A stretch of DNA of 25,495 nt from Patescibacteria group bacterium (GTDB lineage Bacteria > Patescibacteriota > Saccharimonadia > Saccharimonadales > JAGQMS01). Positions 12,538 through 20,431 of the stretch are shown here, one piece after another. The position numbers were made by a program, and so were the translations under genes. Within the stretch, counting starts at the first letter, position 1. Each line of letters opens with the position of its first letter. The stretch covers positions 1-25,495 of the forward strand of contig JBBTYV010000089.1 in NCBI GenBank assembly GCA_038061635.1. Direction: 5' to 3'. The notes below the pieces were generated by a model. That model made no database searches. It worked only from the letters and a program-made list of their open reading frames with translations, and was not told where the DNA came from.

Positions 12538-12697
12538 GCTAAACACTCCAAAGTAGGTTAATAAAAGAGGTTGTAGTTTGGTCGCACTACGAACGGTTTG
12601 GAGTAGGCAAGAGTGTTTCGTCTCGGCTACAAAAGCGTGAAAGTTTGTAGGGTGAGGCGTTTTACTGCGCTCCGCCTACATAACTATCTTCATTATA
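12538..12697 (-). promoter_or_regulatory. Promoter (TATAAT 12692-12697) and ~148-nt structured 5' leader of the DinB operon
   Basis: Perfect inverted repeats 12545-12552/12597-12604 (covers the RBS), 12573-12577/12586-12590, 12627-12633/12644-12650 and 12655-12659/12673-12677. Confidence 0.5.
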
Positions 12698-12811
12698 CAC
12701 CTCTCCACTCAGCAATTTGCTTATGATTTGAATAACCTGACTCGAGGTGTATATTTGCTTTCAGGACTACACCTTAACAACTACAACCTACGAACCTGGA
12801 GGTTCATCGTT

Positions 12812-13525
12812 ATGTCCCAGATCAGTCAGGAAACTGGTCAGCGCAGTTGGATAGCTCTGTTGCTTGTGGGCATCGGCGTGGCAGCAGCCATTGGCGGTGT
12901 CGGATGGTGGGGAAGTTTTCTAGCCGTTATTGGTTTGGGGCTCCTCGCAGAAGTTCAAATTCGTCAAATGGCGTGCCATGGAAAAAAGAAGGGTCGCTGG
13001 CTTCATAGTTTCTTGCTTGTTGCTAGCGGTCTGGTTGGTCTTTGGGTCATGTACGAACTCCGCCGGACTACAAAGGGGACGGCTTTGATCATCCTCTGTG
13101 CTGTCATGATCATCTCGTTTGACACGTTTTCATACTTCGGTGGGAAGCGAGTCAAGCGACTGGGCGGTGGTCACAAGATTGCACCAATCGAGTCTCCGAA
13201 CAAAACCGTGGAGGGAGCGGCTATTGGATACGTCTGCAGTCTGATTGCAGGAATGATCACACTGGGTATCATCCCGGTTTTCTCGGGGATGCATCTCGGC
13301 TGGTCCGTCGTGCTCATCGTTGTTGTTCCCGTATTCGCCTACCTGGGCGATATCAACGAAAGCATGGCGAAGCGCCGGTTGTGTGTCGGGTCATGGACGC
13401 ACGAGACTGTTTCAATCAAAGACTTTTCTAATGTCCTCGGTGCCCACGGTGGTGTCTGTGACAGGTTCGACTCGTGGTTTGCCGTCTTCTCGACGGTAGG
13501 CCTTGTGTGGAGGTTGTCCCTCTAG
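12812..13525 (+). CDS. cdsA: Phosphatidate cytidylyltransferase (CDP-diacylglycerol synthase)
   Basis: DTFSYFGGK, KIAPIESPNKTVEG, GDINESMAKRR, KDFSNVLGAHGGVCDRFDS; multiple TMs. GGAGG RBS supports ATG 12812 over TTG 12728. Confidence 0.9.
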   Translation: MSQISQETGQRSWIALLLVGIGVAAAIGGVGWWGSFLAVIGLGLLAEVQIRQMACHGKKKGRWLHSFLLVASGLVGLWVMYELRRTTKGTALIILCAVMIISFDTFSYFGGKRVKRLGGGHKIAPIESPNKTVEGAAIGYVCSLIAGMITLGIIPVFSGMHLGWSVVLIVVVPVFAYLGDINESMAKRRLCVGSWTHETVSIKDFSNVLGAHGGVCDRFDSWFAVFSTVGLVWRLSL

Positions 13526-13558
13526 TCCCGCCTCACCCCTGGTTGAGCTCAGCGCGAA
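13522..13558 (+). repeat. Degenerate copy (R0) of the gene-end hairpin element
   Basis: CTAGTCCCGC...TGGTTGAG..CAGCG shares start, central and end motifs with R1; begins at the cdsA stop codon. Confidence 0.4.
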
Positions 13559-13592
13559 AACGCTCCGCTCCCGAAAAGGGGTGGGGCGTTTT
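13557..13592 (+). terminator. Intrinsic terminator after cdsA
   Basis: AAAACGCTCCGCTCCC-gaaaa-GGGGTGGGGCGTTTT: 11-bp GC stem with three G-U pairs, which favours the + strand. Confidence 0.8.
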
Positions 13593-13702
13593 GCGTTGTA
13601 ATAGGAGTTCTGAAACCTGCTATTGACGGTTAATAACTCCTTATGATGTAATACGCAACAAGGATGGAGTAATTCATCTCGGAAGTCTAACCACACAACT
13701 AC

Positions 13703-14074
13703 ATGAGATCGGATTTGAAATCGATGAAAAGCCTTGAGGGGTACCTAAAAGAGGTAGAAGTGGGTAATCGGCGGAAGCCTGTTACTTATGTGGTCTTCAG
13801 CATTCTGGCGCTGATTGTGATGGTGATTTGCCTCATGATCGAAGGCGGATCTCTGTGGAAGAACGCCACACATGCATGGCAGGAGGCTGCGATGGGGATC
13901 GCAACCGTTGCTCTTTTCGTAGCTGTCGTGGTTGCCTTGATCGGCTTTCTCGCTCGTTATGGAGAGCGAGAAAGAGCAAAAGACGAAGTTCGGCGCAAAG
14001 AGTCAGCTCGCCAGCTGACGTTGCGCATAGTTGGCGCCGGTCTTCCTGAGCCCAACACAACACTGCCCGACTAG
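13703..14074 (+). CDS. Hypothetical two-TM membrane protein (GC-rich)
   Basis: Two hydrophobic helices; candidate promoter TTGACG-18-TGTAAT at 13623-13652. Confidence 0.72.
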   Translation: MRSDLKSMKSLEGYLKEVEVGNRRKPVTYVVFSILALIVMVICLMIEGGSLWKNATHAWQEAAMGIATVALFVAVVVALIGFLARYGERERAKDEVRRKESARQLTLRIVGAGLPEPNTTLPD

Positions 14075-14122
14075 CCCCGCAAGGAGAGACTCCTATTCAT
14101 GGTTGAGTCCCCAGCGGGGCTC
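14073..14122 (+). repeat. Gene-end nested hairpin element R1
   Basis: Outer stem AGCCCCGC/GCGGGGCT, inner stem GACTC/GAGTC, ATGGT in the loop; closely matches 15142-15196. Confidence 0.75.
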
Positions 14123-14191
14123 AATCATTTTATAGAAGTACAGATTGAAAAAGGCTCTTGTTATAAACATTCTAAATTCTACAATGCTTAT

Positions 14192-14602
14192 ATGAGGCAA
14201 TCGGTGACTCAAAAGGACGATATGGGCTGTGGCATAGCCTGTGTCGCGCATATTACTAATCAAAGCTATGCACAAGTAGTTGAACTATTTGGCAAAGTTA
14301 AGGCACAAACTTCCGGTTTTACACTTAAGGAGCTATCTGCTGTCCTAGAGCATTTGGGTGTCAACAATAATAGACGTTTCATTAGGCCCAAGACAAAACA
14401 TCTTATTTATAGAGAGGGCACGATAGTATTTATAAAACGCTCGAGACTTTACCCAGATGGCCACTATTTATTACGGCACGACGGTCTTTGGATGGACTCG
14501 TGGATAAACTCGCCTTTAGATCAGGATATACGGAACGCAAGTTCTGGGTTTAGGCGGCGCTTGCCTGGAAAACCACAGTACGCGATAATACCAAATTCCT
14601 AA
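14192..14602 (+). CDS. C39-like cysteine peptidase domain protein
   Basis: QKDDMGCGIACVA (Q/C), GHY (H), WMDS (D). Start at ATG 14192 with TACAAT 6 nt upstream, rather than 14099. Confidence 0.75.
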   Translation: MRQSVTQKDDMGCGIACVAHITNQSYAQVVELFGKVKAQTSGFTLKELSAVLEHLGVNNNRRFIRPKTKHLIYREGTIVFIKRSRLYPDGHYLLRHDGLWMDSWINSPLDQDIRNASSGFRRRLPGKPQYAIIPNS

Positions 14603-14711
14603 ACATGAAGTCCTTGTGTTATATTTTTTTAAATTCTAGAATGCCGCCCTGAAGAGATTTCTTACTCTTCAGTACTCCAAAAAACACACACAAACACAGG
14701 AGACGATAGCA

Positions 14712-15152
14712 TTGAAGAAAAGGATGAGTTTCTACTCAAAGATTCGAAAGGGTGCGATTGATGGCAGGTACAGCACGATCGCACTAGTCCTGGCCGTGCT
14801 CATATTCGCCCTTTCAATCACCGGACGCACAGCAGATATCCACTGGATGAAGATTGTTGGGTACTGCCTCGCTGGCCTCCTAGCCGTAAGCATTTGGTGG
14901 TTCGGACTTAGACCAGAGTCTATGGGGGCTTACTACAAGGAACTTCGTAGAAAGGCGATCGAGAGGAAATATGTGCATCGGGCCCCTGTTTTTGCGGCTG
15001 TGGCATTACTTCTTGCGGTTTCCTCTGCTGGGGATGTTCCAAGGCCCGGATGGGTGACCGCAGTACAGTGGTGTTTGTTCGCAATTTTTCTTGGGATCAG
15101 CTACTGGATCTCATACCAGCACGATCAAAAAGGCAAAAGCAAGCCCCGCTAG
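14712..15152 (+). CDS. Hypothetical four-TM membrane protein (GC-rich)
   Basis: Four hydrophobic segments; AGGAG upstream of the TTG start. Confidence 0.72.
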   Translation: MKKRMSFYSKIRKGAIDGRYSTIALVLAVLIFALSITGRTADIHWMKIVGYCLAGLLAVSIWWFGLRPESMGAYYKELRRKAIERKYVHRAPVFAAVALLLAVSSAGDVPRPGWVTAVQWCLFAIFLGISYWISYQHDQKGKSKPR

Positions 15153-15196
15153 TAGTGACTCCCAGAGATGGTCGAGTCACCGCGAAAGCGGGGCTC
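15142..15196 (+). repeat. Gene-end nested hairpin element R2
   Basis: Outer stem AGCCCCGCT/AGCGGGGCT, inner stem GTGACTC/GAGTCAC, ATGGT in the loop. Confidence 0.75.
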
Positions 15197-15237
15197 TTCC
15201 ATACTTTGCGGAAAAATGTCGTACAATAGCCGGAGCA

Positions 15238-17283
15238 ATGGCAAAAAATACTCTTATCCACCCTATAGACGAACTGCGTTTTGGAACTTATGACCCTAAA
15301 GACGCTTCTCAGGCATTAAAAATTACTGAAAAACTAGCCTGGGAGAGAATTGATAGAATCCTACATCTGGATCCGAAAGACCGGACTTTTGAAAACACAG
15401 TGTTGGCCTTAACGCGTTCAACAGACGAATTCGACGCCGTAGTTAGCATAATTGGGCATCTAGAGTCGGTCCTGGGCGAGCCATGGCGCAAAGCAGACAT
15501 ACTATCGTCAACCGTAGCAAGCAAATTTTATAACGAAATTAATCTACACACCGGGCTATATAAAGCTTTCAAGGAAGTTGACTCTAGATTAAAGATTAAG
15601 GAATTAACTAAAGCACAAAATAAACTTTTGACGGATATGATTCGTGAATATAAACGCGGTGGAGTTGACCTACCACCAGCAGAGAAGGAGCGACTCAAAG
15701 AGATAAATAAGGAATTAAGTCGCTCAAGTACTAAGTTTAGCCAGAACACTGTAAAAGCTAACGACAAGACGGGAATATGCGTCACGAATAAGGCAGATTT
15801 GGATGGACTTTCGGACGAATTCATAAAAGAAGCAGCAGAAAATGCAAAGATTAAAGGTAAAACCGCAGGGTACTGGGTTAGCTTTAATGAGCCGAACTTC
15901 ATGTCTGTAATGAGCCTTTGCACTGTAGCCTCTACTCGAAAGGCAATGTTTAAAGCTGTTAAGACTACTGGTTTAAGTCCAAACCTGCCGCTAGCTAAAA
16001 AAATACTTGAGCTACGTTACGAGAAGGCCAAACTACTTGGCTACAAAACTTATGCTGACTTTGTTTTGAAGTCACGAATGGCAAAGAACGGTAAGACCGC
16101 AAGAACTTTTATAGACAATTTGACAAAAACCTATAAACCAATTATTAAACGAGAGCTTCGTAACCTCGAGAATTTTGCTAGAAAATATGAGAACAATCCG
16201 AAGTATAAACTTGATGCCAGTGATATTGATTCGGGGTTAGATTGGTTTTACGCACACAAACAACGCGAAAAGCTATTTGACATTAACGAAAGTGTTGCAA
16301 AGGAATACTTTCCGATCGAGAAAGTTCTTTCGGGAATGTTCGAAACACTTTCGATTTTGTACGGAGTTAAATTTATCAAAAATTCATCCATAAAACGATG
16401 GCACAAAGACGTTGAAATTTACGAAATTCATGACGAACTAGGCAAACATATTGCAACTGTTTGGTGCGATTGGTTTGCCCGGAAGAACAAGCAGGGTAAT
16501 GCCTGGATGAATGCCTACTACGTAGCCGATCGAGCGGATGGCAAGGTCGACAAACCACACCTTGGGTACGTGATTGCTAACCTGCCGTTACCGACCAAAA
16601 CAGTGCCAAGCCTTTTAAAACCTAGAGACGTAGAAACCATCTGGCATGAGTTCGGTCATTTTATGCATCTTGCACTAGGCAGGACTGAACTTGTTGAGCA
16701 ATCGATGATGGATATCGAGTGGGACTTTGTGGAAGCCCCTTCGCAGATATTCGAAAACTGGATCTGGCAACCAGAGATACTAACAAAAATCACTTCTCAT
16801 TATAAAACTGAGAAAAAAATTCCTGATAGTTTAGTAAAGAAGCTAATTGCTGCTCGACAATTTAGAGCATCAAGCAAGAATGCTAGCCAGTTCATATACG
16901 CAAAAACCGACTTAATGCTTCATATGGATTACGCTAAGGATCCGTCTAAAGCTGACACGGTTGCTGTTAATCACAAGAACAAACTAGCAGTTCGTGGCTA
17001 TCCAGCAGAGGAGTGGGACAAAGGTGCCTTGAGCTTTAACCACATTTTTGCAGGGGGCTACGCCGCTGCATATTATTCATATAAGTGGGCGGAAGCTATT
17101 GAGGCCGATTTCTTTGAAAGGTTTCAGAAAGAAGGTGTCTTGAACTCGAAGCTAGGACGAGAATATAGAGATAAAGTTCTTGCTCGAGGTGCCGAGATAC
17201 CGGCCACGACACTTGTTAAAGACTTCTTGGGGCGTCAGAGCAACATAAAAGCTATGCTTCGTCGCGACGGTATTAAACCGTAA
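15238..17283 (+). CDS. M3-family oligopeptidase (oligopeptidase A/PrlC-like)
   Basis: HEFGH zinc motif, WDFVEAPSQIFENW, HIFAGGYAAAYYSYKWAE. ATG 15238 preferred; the 15091 extension overlaps the upstream gene and R2. Confidence 0.93.
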   Translation: MAKNTLIHPIDELRFGTYDPKDASQALKITEKLAWERIDRILHLDPKDRTFENTVLALTRSTDEFDAVVSIIGHLESVLGEPWRKADILSSTVASKFYNEINLHTGLYKAFKEVDSRLKIKELTKAQNKLLTDMIREYKRGGVDLPPAEKERLKEINKELSRSSTKFSQNTVKANDKTGICVTNKADLDGLSDEFIKEAAENAKIKGKTAGYWVSFNEPNFMSVMSLCTVASTRKAMFKAVKTTGLSPNLPLAKKILELRYEKAKLLGYKTYADFVLKSRMAKNGKTARTFIDNLTKTYKPIIKRELRNLENFARKYENNPKYKLDASDIDSGLDWFYAHKQREKLFDINESVAKEYFPIEKVLSGMFETLSILYGVKFIKNSSIKRWHKDVEIYEIHDELGKHIATVWCDWFARKNKQGNAWMNAYYVADRADGKVDKPHLGYVIANLPLPTKTVPSLLKPRDVETIWHEFGHFMHLALGRTELVEQSMMDIEWDFVEAPSQIFENWIWQPEILTKITSHYKTEKKIPDSLVKKLIAARQFRASSKNASQFIYAKTDLMLHMDYAKDPSKADTVAVNHKNKLAVRGYPAEEWDKGALSFNHIFAGGYAAAYYSYKWAEAIEADFFERFQKEGVLNSKLGREYRDKVLARGAEIPATTLVKDFLGRQSNIKAMLRRDGIKP

Positions 17284-20407: not shown

Positions 20408-20431
20408 CCTACCACTAATGGTAGGTTTTTT
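20408..20431 (+). terminator. Terminator-like hairpin upstream of secE
   Basis: CCTACCA-ctaa-TGGTAGG followed by TTTTTT. Confidence 0.6.

Follow-up and report, generated by a model that had tools for sequence, protein, structure and literature searches.

We examined a 25,495-nt stretch of DNA (hereafter the window; contig C89, JBBTYV010000089.1) from a Patescibacteria group bacterium of the class Saccharimonadia, whose genome (G000) comprises 705 kb in 116 contigs, has 46% GC and is 88% complete. Five genes of interest follow one another on the + strand: a cdsA-like gene (12812-13525), a gene encoding a 123-amino-acid (123-aa) protein with two transmembrane segments (2-TM; 13703..14074), a gene with a C39-like cysteine peptidase domain (14192..14602; PF03412, E 4.5e-5), a gene encoding a 146-aa protein with four transmembrane segments (4-TM; 14712..15152) and an M3 peptidase gene (15238-17283). 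A nested hairpin, R1 (14073..14121, +), sits on the end of the 123-aa gene, and a paralogous copy, R2 (15142..15195, +), lies across the end of the 146-aa gene. An earlier inspection of the letters without database searches (the sequence-only reading) had offered three readings of these hairpins: a gene-plus-hairpin cassette, a dispersed repeat or a 3' RNA stability or processing element. The last of these fits best; the dispersed repeat fails in this genome and its relatives, and the cassette has suggestive support but lacks its defining parts. R1 and R2 belong to a structured RNA motif that is undescribed and well supported, and of a familiar functional kind.

Both copies have the outer arms AGCCCCGC and GCGGGGCT, at 14073-14080 and 14114-14121 in R1 and at 15142-15149 and 15188-15195 in R2. 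Inside these arms lies an inner stem, GACTC paired with GAGTC (14088-14092 with 14105-14109 in R1, 15157-15161 with 15174-15178 in R2), which in R1 is extended past a UU bulge by CC/GG apical pairs. The positions are exactly those of the sequence-only reading, and the shared pattern that it drew, AGCCCCGC..GACTCC..ATGGTyGAGTC..GCGGGGCTC, is found in register in the two copies; the likeness ends at the borders of the element, and the flanks are unrelated. The predicted folds are nested in both, with free energies of -25.1 kcal/mol for R1 (z -2.8) and -33.4 kcal/mol for R2 (z -5.8). The coordinates likewise agree with the statement that R1 and R2 overlap the TAG stops of their genes while the interleaved C39 gene carries no copy. 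The TAG at 14072-14074, which ends the 123-aa gene, overlaps the first stem bases of R1, and the TAG at 15150-15152, which ends the 146-aa gene, lies within R2 just past the 5' arm, inside the first internal loop, the arm itself coding for the final three residues (K-P-R) of the protein. The C39 gene has a typical GC content and no hairpin of the family after it.

The likeness of R1 and R2 is far above chance (covariance-model E 1e-14 to 1e-18 per genome), and these E-values, together with the covariation described below, exclude a fortuitous similarity; the two are homologous copies of an element of about 50 nt. When the genome was searched, the model matched R1 at 14068-14132 with 63.9 bits and R2 at 15137-15205 with 80.8 bits, both on the + strand, and at E <= 1 these were the sole copies in the 705 kb. 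Taken alone, the arm octamer occurs 13 times in the genome, about the number estimated from base composition, and patterns restricted to the inner hairpin showed no excess over shuffles there. The 17-base core alone had 68 matches in 596 Gb (185,579 species genomes), about the estimated chance number, and the outer stem was present at none of them. The copies are not the dragged-along 3' ends of paralogous genes, since the 123-aa and 146-aa proteins gave no BLASTP alignment and the flanks are unrelated. Known motifs were also considered. When Rfam was run on the window, only four tRNAs reached the gathering score, and R1 and R2 matched nothing at E <= 10. A PyrR-like loop (CCAGAGA in R2) was rejected as the loop is not conserved and Rfam gave no match; K-turn, T-arm or tRNA-like and SECIS-like motifs were weighed, with Rfam as the only tool test, and the sequences do not fit them. 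A double-stranded DNA operator for a dimeric regulator was rejected as well, given covarying arms, a spacing that can differ by up to about 45 nt and G-U pairs confined to one strand.

The family was assembled by searching about 500 genomes under strict filters. A query with the C39 protein led to a genome of the same genus, G001, in which both elements stand at the positions equivalent to R1 and R2, and a covariance model was built from four copies (R1, R2 and the two copies of G001). This model found one copy in G002 and weaker copies in G003 and G068. Contigs with M3 homologues gave two further copies, on L096/L097 (M3 85% identical overall) and L098/L099 (64%), although a metagenome scan with the M3 N-terminus found no relatives; searching the family of G068 added G187, G166 and G167, and a search run without filters recovered G005. 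Thirteen confident copies make up the alignment used below (A5), and 21 members were surveyed for gene context and tails. A third model detected nested but weaker relatives in further orders of the class, such as G214 and G288, which carry UGGUUGAGUC and have their CUCUUCCAU tail in common with R2, and also simple hairpins with the outer stem and tail only. In about 143 genomes from elsewhere in the phylum there was one weak 36-nt match, a result that bounds the family and shows that the model does not respond to every GC-rich terminator. Copy numbers are low throughout, usually one or two in this genome and its relatives, at odds with the idea of a dispersed repeat family. On these comparisons, the element is a conserved structured RNA, under strong selection and specific to Saccharimonadia-type Patescibacteria.

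Compensatory changes in both stems were already apparent in the first four copies. Across the 13 copies, 96.8% of the paired cells hold a pair and 12 of the 17 pairs have changed on both sides. On each of the five measures used, all 500 shuffles fell short, and controls in which the partner was slid were only 32-48% paired. The fold that emerges is an 8-bp G+C-rich outer helix, an internal loop, an inner hairpin and a terminal loop of variable length. The lower stem of the inner hairpin, (G/A)CUC:GAG(C/U), is nearly invariant and is followed by a 2-nt U-N bulge on the 3' side and then by CC:GG pairs. Indeed, the inner pairs U-A, C-G and C-G and the motif GGU-N-GAG with its bulged U-N are invariant or nearly so among the 13 members, with a terminal loop that ranges from 4 to 41 nt and holds an extra hairpin in G003 and probably in G005. 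The stability of the members ranges from -21 to -48 kcal/mol. G-U pairs outnumber A-C pairs by 13 to 4, and R2 and R1 score 69.9 and 53.8 bits on the + strand against 16.9 and 12.3 bits on the - strand; we therefore read the element as RNA of the sense strand. It is also more conserved than its neighbours: R1 of G001 and the L098 element are 84% identical, the M3 proteins of G000 and L098 are only 56% identical, and the proteins encoded upstream of R1 in G000 and G001 cannot be aligned.

The position of the element relative to genes is equally regular. All 21 members have the stop codon of a same-strand open reading frame (ORF) at -26 to +44 nt of the first paired base, mostly at -18 to +13. 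A UAA or UAG stands directly before the 5' arm in R1, G001 R1, L098, G237 and both copies of G256, and the UAG of the first internal loop serves as the stop in R2, G001 R2, G068 and G167, where the arm codes for the last residues of the protein. The genes that end in this way are mutually unrelated. They include a 2-TM family marked by '…EVxxGNRQ…', to which the fast-evolving 123-aa protein belongs, the 4-TM protein, a hexapeptide-repeat-like protein, a 444-aa ORF and others, and they are often small and, where homologues were sought, fast-evolving or unique. In L097 and in L098 the gene before the single element encodes a homologue of the 123-aa protein (E 3.5e-7 and 8e-6, respectively); the 146-aa protein has an orthologue in G001 (48% identical) and found only itself among 5.8 billion proteins; and the gene upstream of the G068 element had no counterpart among 41 genera.

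A pyrimidine- or U-rich tail follows the stem. In R1 it begins CAATCATTTTAT (14122..14135, +), a form common to the family, whose consensus is about CUCUUCCAUUU; in R2 it reads CTCTTCCATACTTT (15196..15209, +), the same as in G001 R2 and nearly identical in G214, a member of another order. The tails of all 21 members contain 5-9 U in 12 nt, well above the prediction for a genome of 46% GC, and UUUU or UUUUU comes directly after the stem in G002, G003, G005, G167 and G256b. The remark of the sequence-only reading that U-tracts are absent is correct only in part: the tails of R1 and R2 do have 6 U in 12 nt, with no run adjacent to the stem, and several of their relatives have such a run. What follows the tail is either a gene that has a -10 box of its own or, in G003 and G166, a convergent gene. 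A promoter-like site, TTGTTA-16-TACAAT (14158..14185, +), is found 36 nt after R1, and the AAATTCTACAAT block there is conserved in G001; the C39 gene, 61% identical in its G001 product, starts at the ATG at 14192, only 6 nt past the -10 box, so its mRNA may be leaderless. The predicted control block of the M3 gene (15222..15240, +) begins 26 nt after R2 and comprises TACAAT (15222-15227), the Shine-Dalgarno sequence GGAG (15232-15235) and the ATG (15238). Five genomes (G000, G001, G002, L097 and L098) have kept the block TGTCGTACAATAGCC.

Since position, strand, stability and tail all fit, the reading best supported is that the hairpin marks the end of a transcript. We consider it probable that the element is a terminator (possibly factor-assisted), a hairpin protecting the 3' end of the upstream gene's transcript, or both. 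The element would be transcribed as the last part of the mRNA of the upstream gene, where it would end this small gene's transcript and/or block exonucleases at the 3' end, and it would insulate the next promoter, that of the C39 gene after R1 and that of the M3 gene after R2. The comparisons above show the homology, structure, strand, position and distribution of the element; its role in termination or stabilisation, and the reason for which the sequence of the inner hairpin has been kept, are what we infer from them. The kept inner hairpin suggests a protein partner or an assisted terminator.

Several observations weigh against the view that the element ends transcripts. Intrinsic terminators carry a U-tract of about 7-9 nt immediately after the stem, and the tails of R1 and R2, CAAUCAUUUU and CUCUUCCAUACUUU, have no U-run there. 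A study on mycobacteria argues that the U-tract is necessary for termination (PMC3993855). True U-tract terminators do exist nearby in the window, at 20408-20425 and at R0. The runs that carry the locus, all of them groundwater metagenomes, consist of DNA only. Finally, loop, bulge and tail are kept across orders and at unrelated genes, which is not normal for plain terminators and leaves a further constraint, be it a partner protein, mobility or a switch, unexplained. R0 (13550..13598, +), the hairpin after the cdsA-like gene, had been taken for a degenerate third copy. It contains TGGTTGAGC, but the final family model gives it only 7.5 bits (E 5.2 within the window), and its arms AAAACGCTCCGCTCCC / GGGGTGGGGCGTTTT (-38.8 kcal/mol) form a long hairpin that ends in GGGGCGTTTTGCG and is directly followed by a U-run. 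R0 was thus rejected as a family member and resembles a separate, canonical intrinsic terminator.

The comparison of related loci bears on how R1 and R2 came to lie so close together. In G000 and G001 the C39 gene, the 4-TM gene and R2 stand between R1 and the promoter block of the peptidase; this segment is absent in L097, G002 and L098, which carry one R1-type element. The homology of the 123-aa protein to the genes before the L097 and L098 elements, together with the 84% identity between G001 R1 and the L098 element, implies that R1 is the ancestral element of the 2-TM gene. R1 would then be the ancestral terminator of that gene, placed just upstream of the M3 promoter, and R2 a second copy closing the gained or lost segment of the C39 and 4-TM genes. 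Over its first 310 residues the M3 protein of L097 is 84% identical to that of G000, and that of G002 80%; the placement of G001 rests on its same-genus label only. The segment may accordingly have been gained or lost more than once, as far as these identities can tell. In G001 the gene that follows the same R2 and TGTCGTACAATAGCCGGAG promoter and Shine-Dalgarno block encodes an M13 peptidase (L104:1760-3733, -) instead of the M3 peptidase, so that one peptidase gene has been replaced by a non-orthologous one while the control region ahead of it was conserved. The 2-TM gene and the element of G003 and G005 are found between the 101-aa gene and the DinB gene, on the opposite strand. The real gene there is the 140-aa ORF, which is 51% conserved in G005; the antisense 392-aa ORF is 39% conserved and broken. 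The stretch from the 101-aa/DinB operon to the peptidase gene is a variable islet of small, GC-richer genes.

The composition of these genes supports the sequence-only reading on one further point. It had called the genes ahead of R0, R1 and R2 atypically GC-rich, and the GC content at third codon positions (GC3) of the cdsA-like, 123-aa and 146-aa genes is 0.565-0.605, the 95th-98th percentile of 557 long ORFs; the C39 and M3 genes lie below the median of this set. Hydrophobic ORFs are generally not GC-rich (mean GC 0.445). The cdsA-like gene (CTP_transf_1) has the highest GC3 of the region, 0.605. As a query it had no match in the same-genus genomes G001 and G002 and was found only in G003, at 40% identity; by this distribution it is no core gene of the locus but an accessory or divergent copy.

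Some features of the locus speak for a different function, in which the hairpin is the boundary of 'gene plus hairpin' units that are moved, duplicated or deleted by a hairpin-recognising enzyme, in the manner of attC sites, of repetitive extragenic palindromes (REP) and their REP-associated tyrosine transposase (RAYT), or of miniature inverted-repeat transposable elements (MITE) and SPRITE, with a terminator-like placement that arose as a by-product or by co-option. The segment that R1 and R2 enclose is present in G000 and G001 and absent in L097, G002 and L098; the M3 protein of L097 is nearer to that of G000 than is the one of G002; the 2-TM gene and its element appear on the other side of the 101-aa gene, with the strand reversed, in G003 and G005; homologous copies follow unrelated genes in different orders; the upstream genes are unique or nearly so where homologues were sought and, in the window, atypical in GC3; and the ORFs of four members enter the element and use its internal UAG. 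Folded attC sites combine two stems and an unpaired spacer with extrahelical bases and a terminal structure that varies, and the two stems, unpaired spacer, one-strand bulges and variable terminal structure seen here loosely recall this layout. We nevertheless regard mobility as rather unlikely. Each genome holds one or two copies, and there are no arrays. No recombinase is encoded in the window, and the one tyrosine recombinase (PF00589, C54) and the one Y1/RAYT-like gene (C59) of the genome are on other contigs. What stands on either side of the RAYT-like gene is another palindrome, ACAAGGAGsCTCCTTGT, and a Y1_Tnp search gave no match in G002, G003 and G068, which bear the element. We saw neither terminal inverted repeats nor target duplications nor clean empty sites, and the only insertion or deletion at the locus is the C39 and 4-TM segment bracketed by R1 and R2. 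Four groundwater metagenome runs showed no deletion or joint variants, the contigs merely breaking near R0, R1 and R2. Within family f1, moreover, vertical descent together with the 2-TM gene can account for the copies.

The RAYT-like gene is of some interest in itself. It encodes a 207-aa Y1_Tnp/RAYT-like protein (C59:41344-41574; L103:1254-2023) and has one REP-like palindrome ACAAGGAGsCTCCTTGT on one side and two on the other. The palindrome has 4-6 copies in the genome in all and belongs to a small REP/RAYT-like system of its own, which has nothing to do with R1 and R2.

A second alternative takes the element as a regulatory RNA: the inner hairpin (CUCC...GGU-N-GAG with its bulged U) would be the site of an RNA-binding protein, or the whole element a translation-coupled switch in which a ribosome that stops on or beside the 5' arm releases the 3' arm for pairing with a nearer C-rich segment (helix a':c) and so alters termination or decay. 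The three inner pairs and GGU.GAG are as good as invariant among the 13 members around a terminal loop of 4-41 nt, and the stop codon always lies where a terminating ribosome would cover the 5' arm. The a':c helix, which is all the specific support that this alternative has, is 84% paired with three compensatory pairs, values that 3-5 of 500 shuffles reach; its pair 104-118 is CG in seven members, UA in three and UG in one. Proteins of the FinO/ProQ type, which recognise terminator hairpins and their flanks (PMC12001967), offer a precedent. This support for a':c is modest, however, as the shuffles themselves are 80% paired, a baseline inflated by the C-rich/G-rich composition, and both conformers keep the 3' arm paired beside the tail, so that no clear on/off logic results. 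Several of the class-level relatives have simple inner hairpins without the motif, and no candidate partner protein was identified. On balance, we think a regulatory RNA of either kind improbable.

More speculative is a reading in which the element is a self-contained 'stop-and-terminate' boundary module for accessory genes in Saccharimonadia, a hairpin recognised on one strand by a putative recombinase (as folded single-stranded DNA) or by an RNA-binding factor, that would travel and be duplicated with small orphan genes, mark their limits and supply them with a stop codon and a terminator. We hold this to be improbable; if true, the module would be a minimal, integron-independent cassette grammar for ultra-small genomes.

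Hardly credible, finally, is a recoding role, in which the UAG is read through to fuse the 123-aa protein to C39, or the ATG at 14099 in the loop, preceded by AAGGAG, serves as a sequestered start. The ORF 14099..14602 does share its frame with the 123-aa ORF, only the TAG at 14072-14074 standing between them, and both loops read ATGGTyGAGTCnCC, encoding MVESP with three differences at third codon positions, but the frame after the TAA of G001 closes about 29 codons on, C39 starts there at a conserved MxxSVTQK (ATG 14192 here), R2 is followed by in-frame TAG TAG TGA, and the loop ATG is absent in L098, G003, G005, G068, G187, G166 and G167, so that the relatives largely refute both versions. 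This arrangement, including the AAGGAG 12 nt before the in-loop ATG, is not conserved in G001 and is probably a coincidence.

Other parts of the region contain signals of their own. A hairpin CTGAAGAG-N8-CTCTTCAG (14651-14674) follows a TAGAAT -10-like box (14633-14638), probably within the 5' leader of the 146-aa gene; its G001 counterpart, CTGAAAAG...CTTTTCAG, shows a compensatory G:C to A:U change. Ahead of C39-like genes of other genera (L074:1400-1480 in G016 and L075:1400-1480 in G003), a conserved CATAAGCACTATG box is followed by a different simple hairpin with a U-run and then by the same AAATTCTACAnT-type -10 region; the G016 hairpin, GACTCC-N6-GGAGTC, recalls the inner stem of R1. 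Farther upstream in the window, the untranslated leader of the 101-aa/DinB-like operon (12550-12700; L073:2760-2880) is conserved in sequence in G001, and there is a 4-nt overlap between the 101-aa gene and the start of the Y-family polymerase gene.

Almost nothing is known of how transcripts end in the ultra-small Patescibacteria, whose compact genomes pack stop codon, terminator and next promoter into a few dozen bases. A class-wide, strongly covarying hairpin with an invariant bulged inner stem and a conserved tail, reused behind unrelated genes of which some are small or orphan, is a handle on assisted or non-canonical termination or on a terminator-binding protein in cultivable Saccharibacteria, and adding the family to RNA libraries could stop such elements from passing for mobile repeats or cassettes. 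Were the hairpins cassette boundaries after all, accessory genes would be shuffled in these bacteria without integrons, a minority view on present evidence.

How the element relates to known systems can be set out as follows. Like attC sites, it follows small, often orphan genes, and one of its strands folds to give two stems and an unpaired spacer. The sequence-only reading had stated that attC cores are lacking. This needs qualification, in that a GTTRRRY-like heptamer, GTTGAGY, occurs in 7 of the 13 members within the conserved GGUUGAGY; it stands in that the heptamer is internal, varies at its third base (U/C/A) and has no RYYYAAC partner. In contrast to attC, the outermost pairing is GCCCCGC:GCGGGGC, the heptamer lies inside the inner stem instead of being terminal, there is no adjacent IntI, attI or array, and the strand-specific features are on the coding strand. 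The REP, BIME and REPIN families are likewise small G+C-rich extragenic palindromes at gene 3' ends, able to stabilise the upstream mRNA, and this genome has a RAYT-like gene; however, those families number tens to hundreds of copies against two here, the palindrome of the RAYT-like gene differs, and the element occurs where no Y1_Tnp was found. The element therefore lacks the defining features of attC sites and of REP/RAYT systems that were tested. The SPRITE repeat of S. pneumoniae is terminator-like, lies near the 3' ends of coding sequences with an enrichment between convergent genes, and has no known mobilising enzyme (PMC3049150). It consists of a duplex and a tract of about 48% U and is thought to have been co-opted as a terminator (PMC3049150), yet it is AT-rich, present in about 30 copies per genome and formed by a simple 18-bp duplex with AAAA/TTTT ends (PMC3049150), whereas our element is GC-rich, nested, present in one or two copies per genome and spread over a class rather than a species group. 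With intrinsic terminators the element shares a G+C-rich hairpin on the sense strand directly after the stop, a U-rich tail and a location before the next promoter or between convergent genes; it differs from them in being nested, with a conserved inner hairpin, bulge and tail, and in being homologous at unrelated genes across orders. As a sequence family it is nearest to SPRITE, and in its working it would come nearest to the intrinsic terminator.

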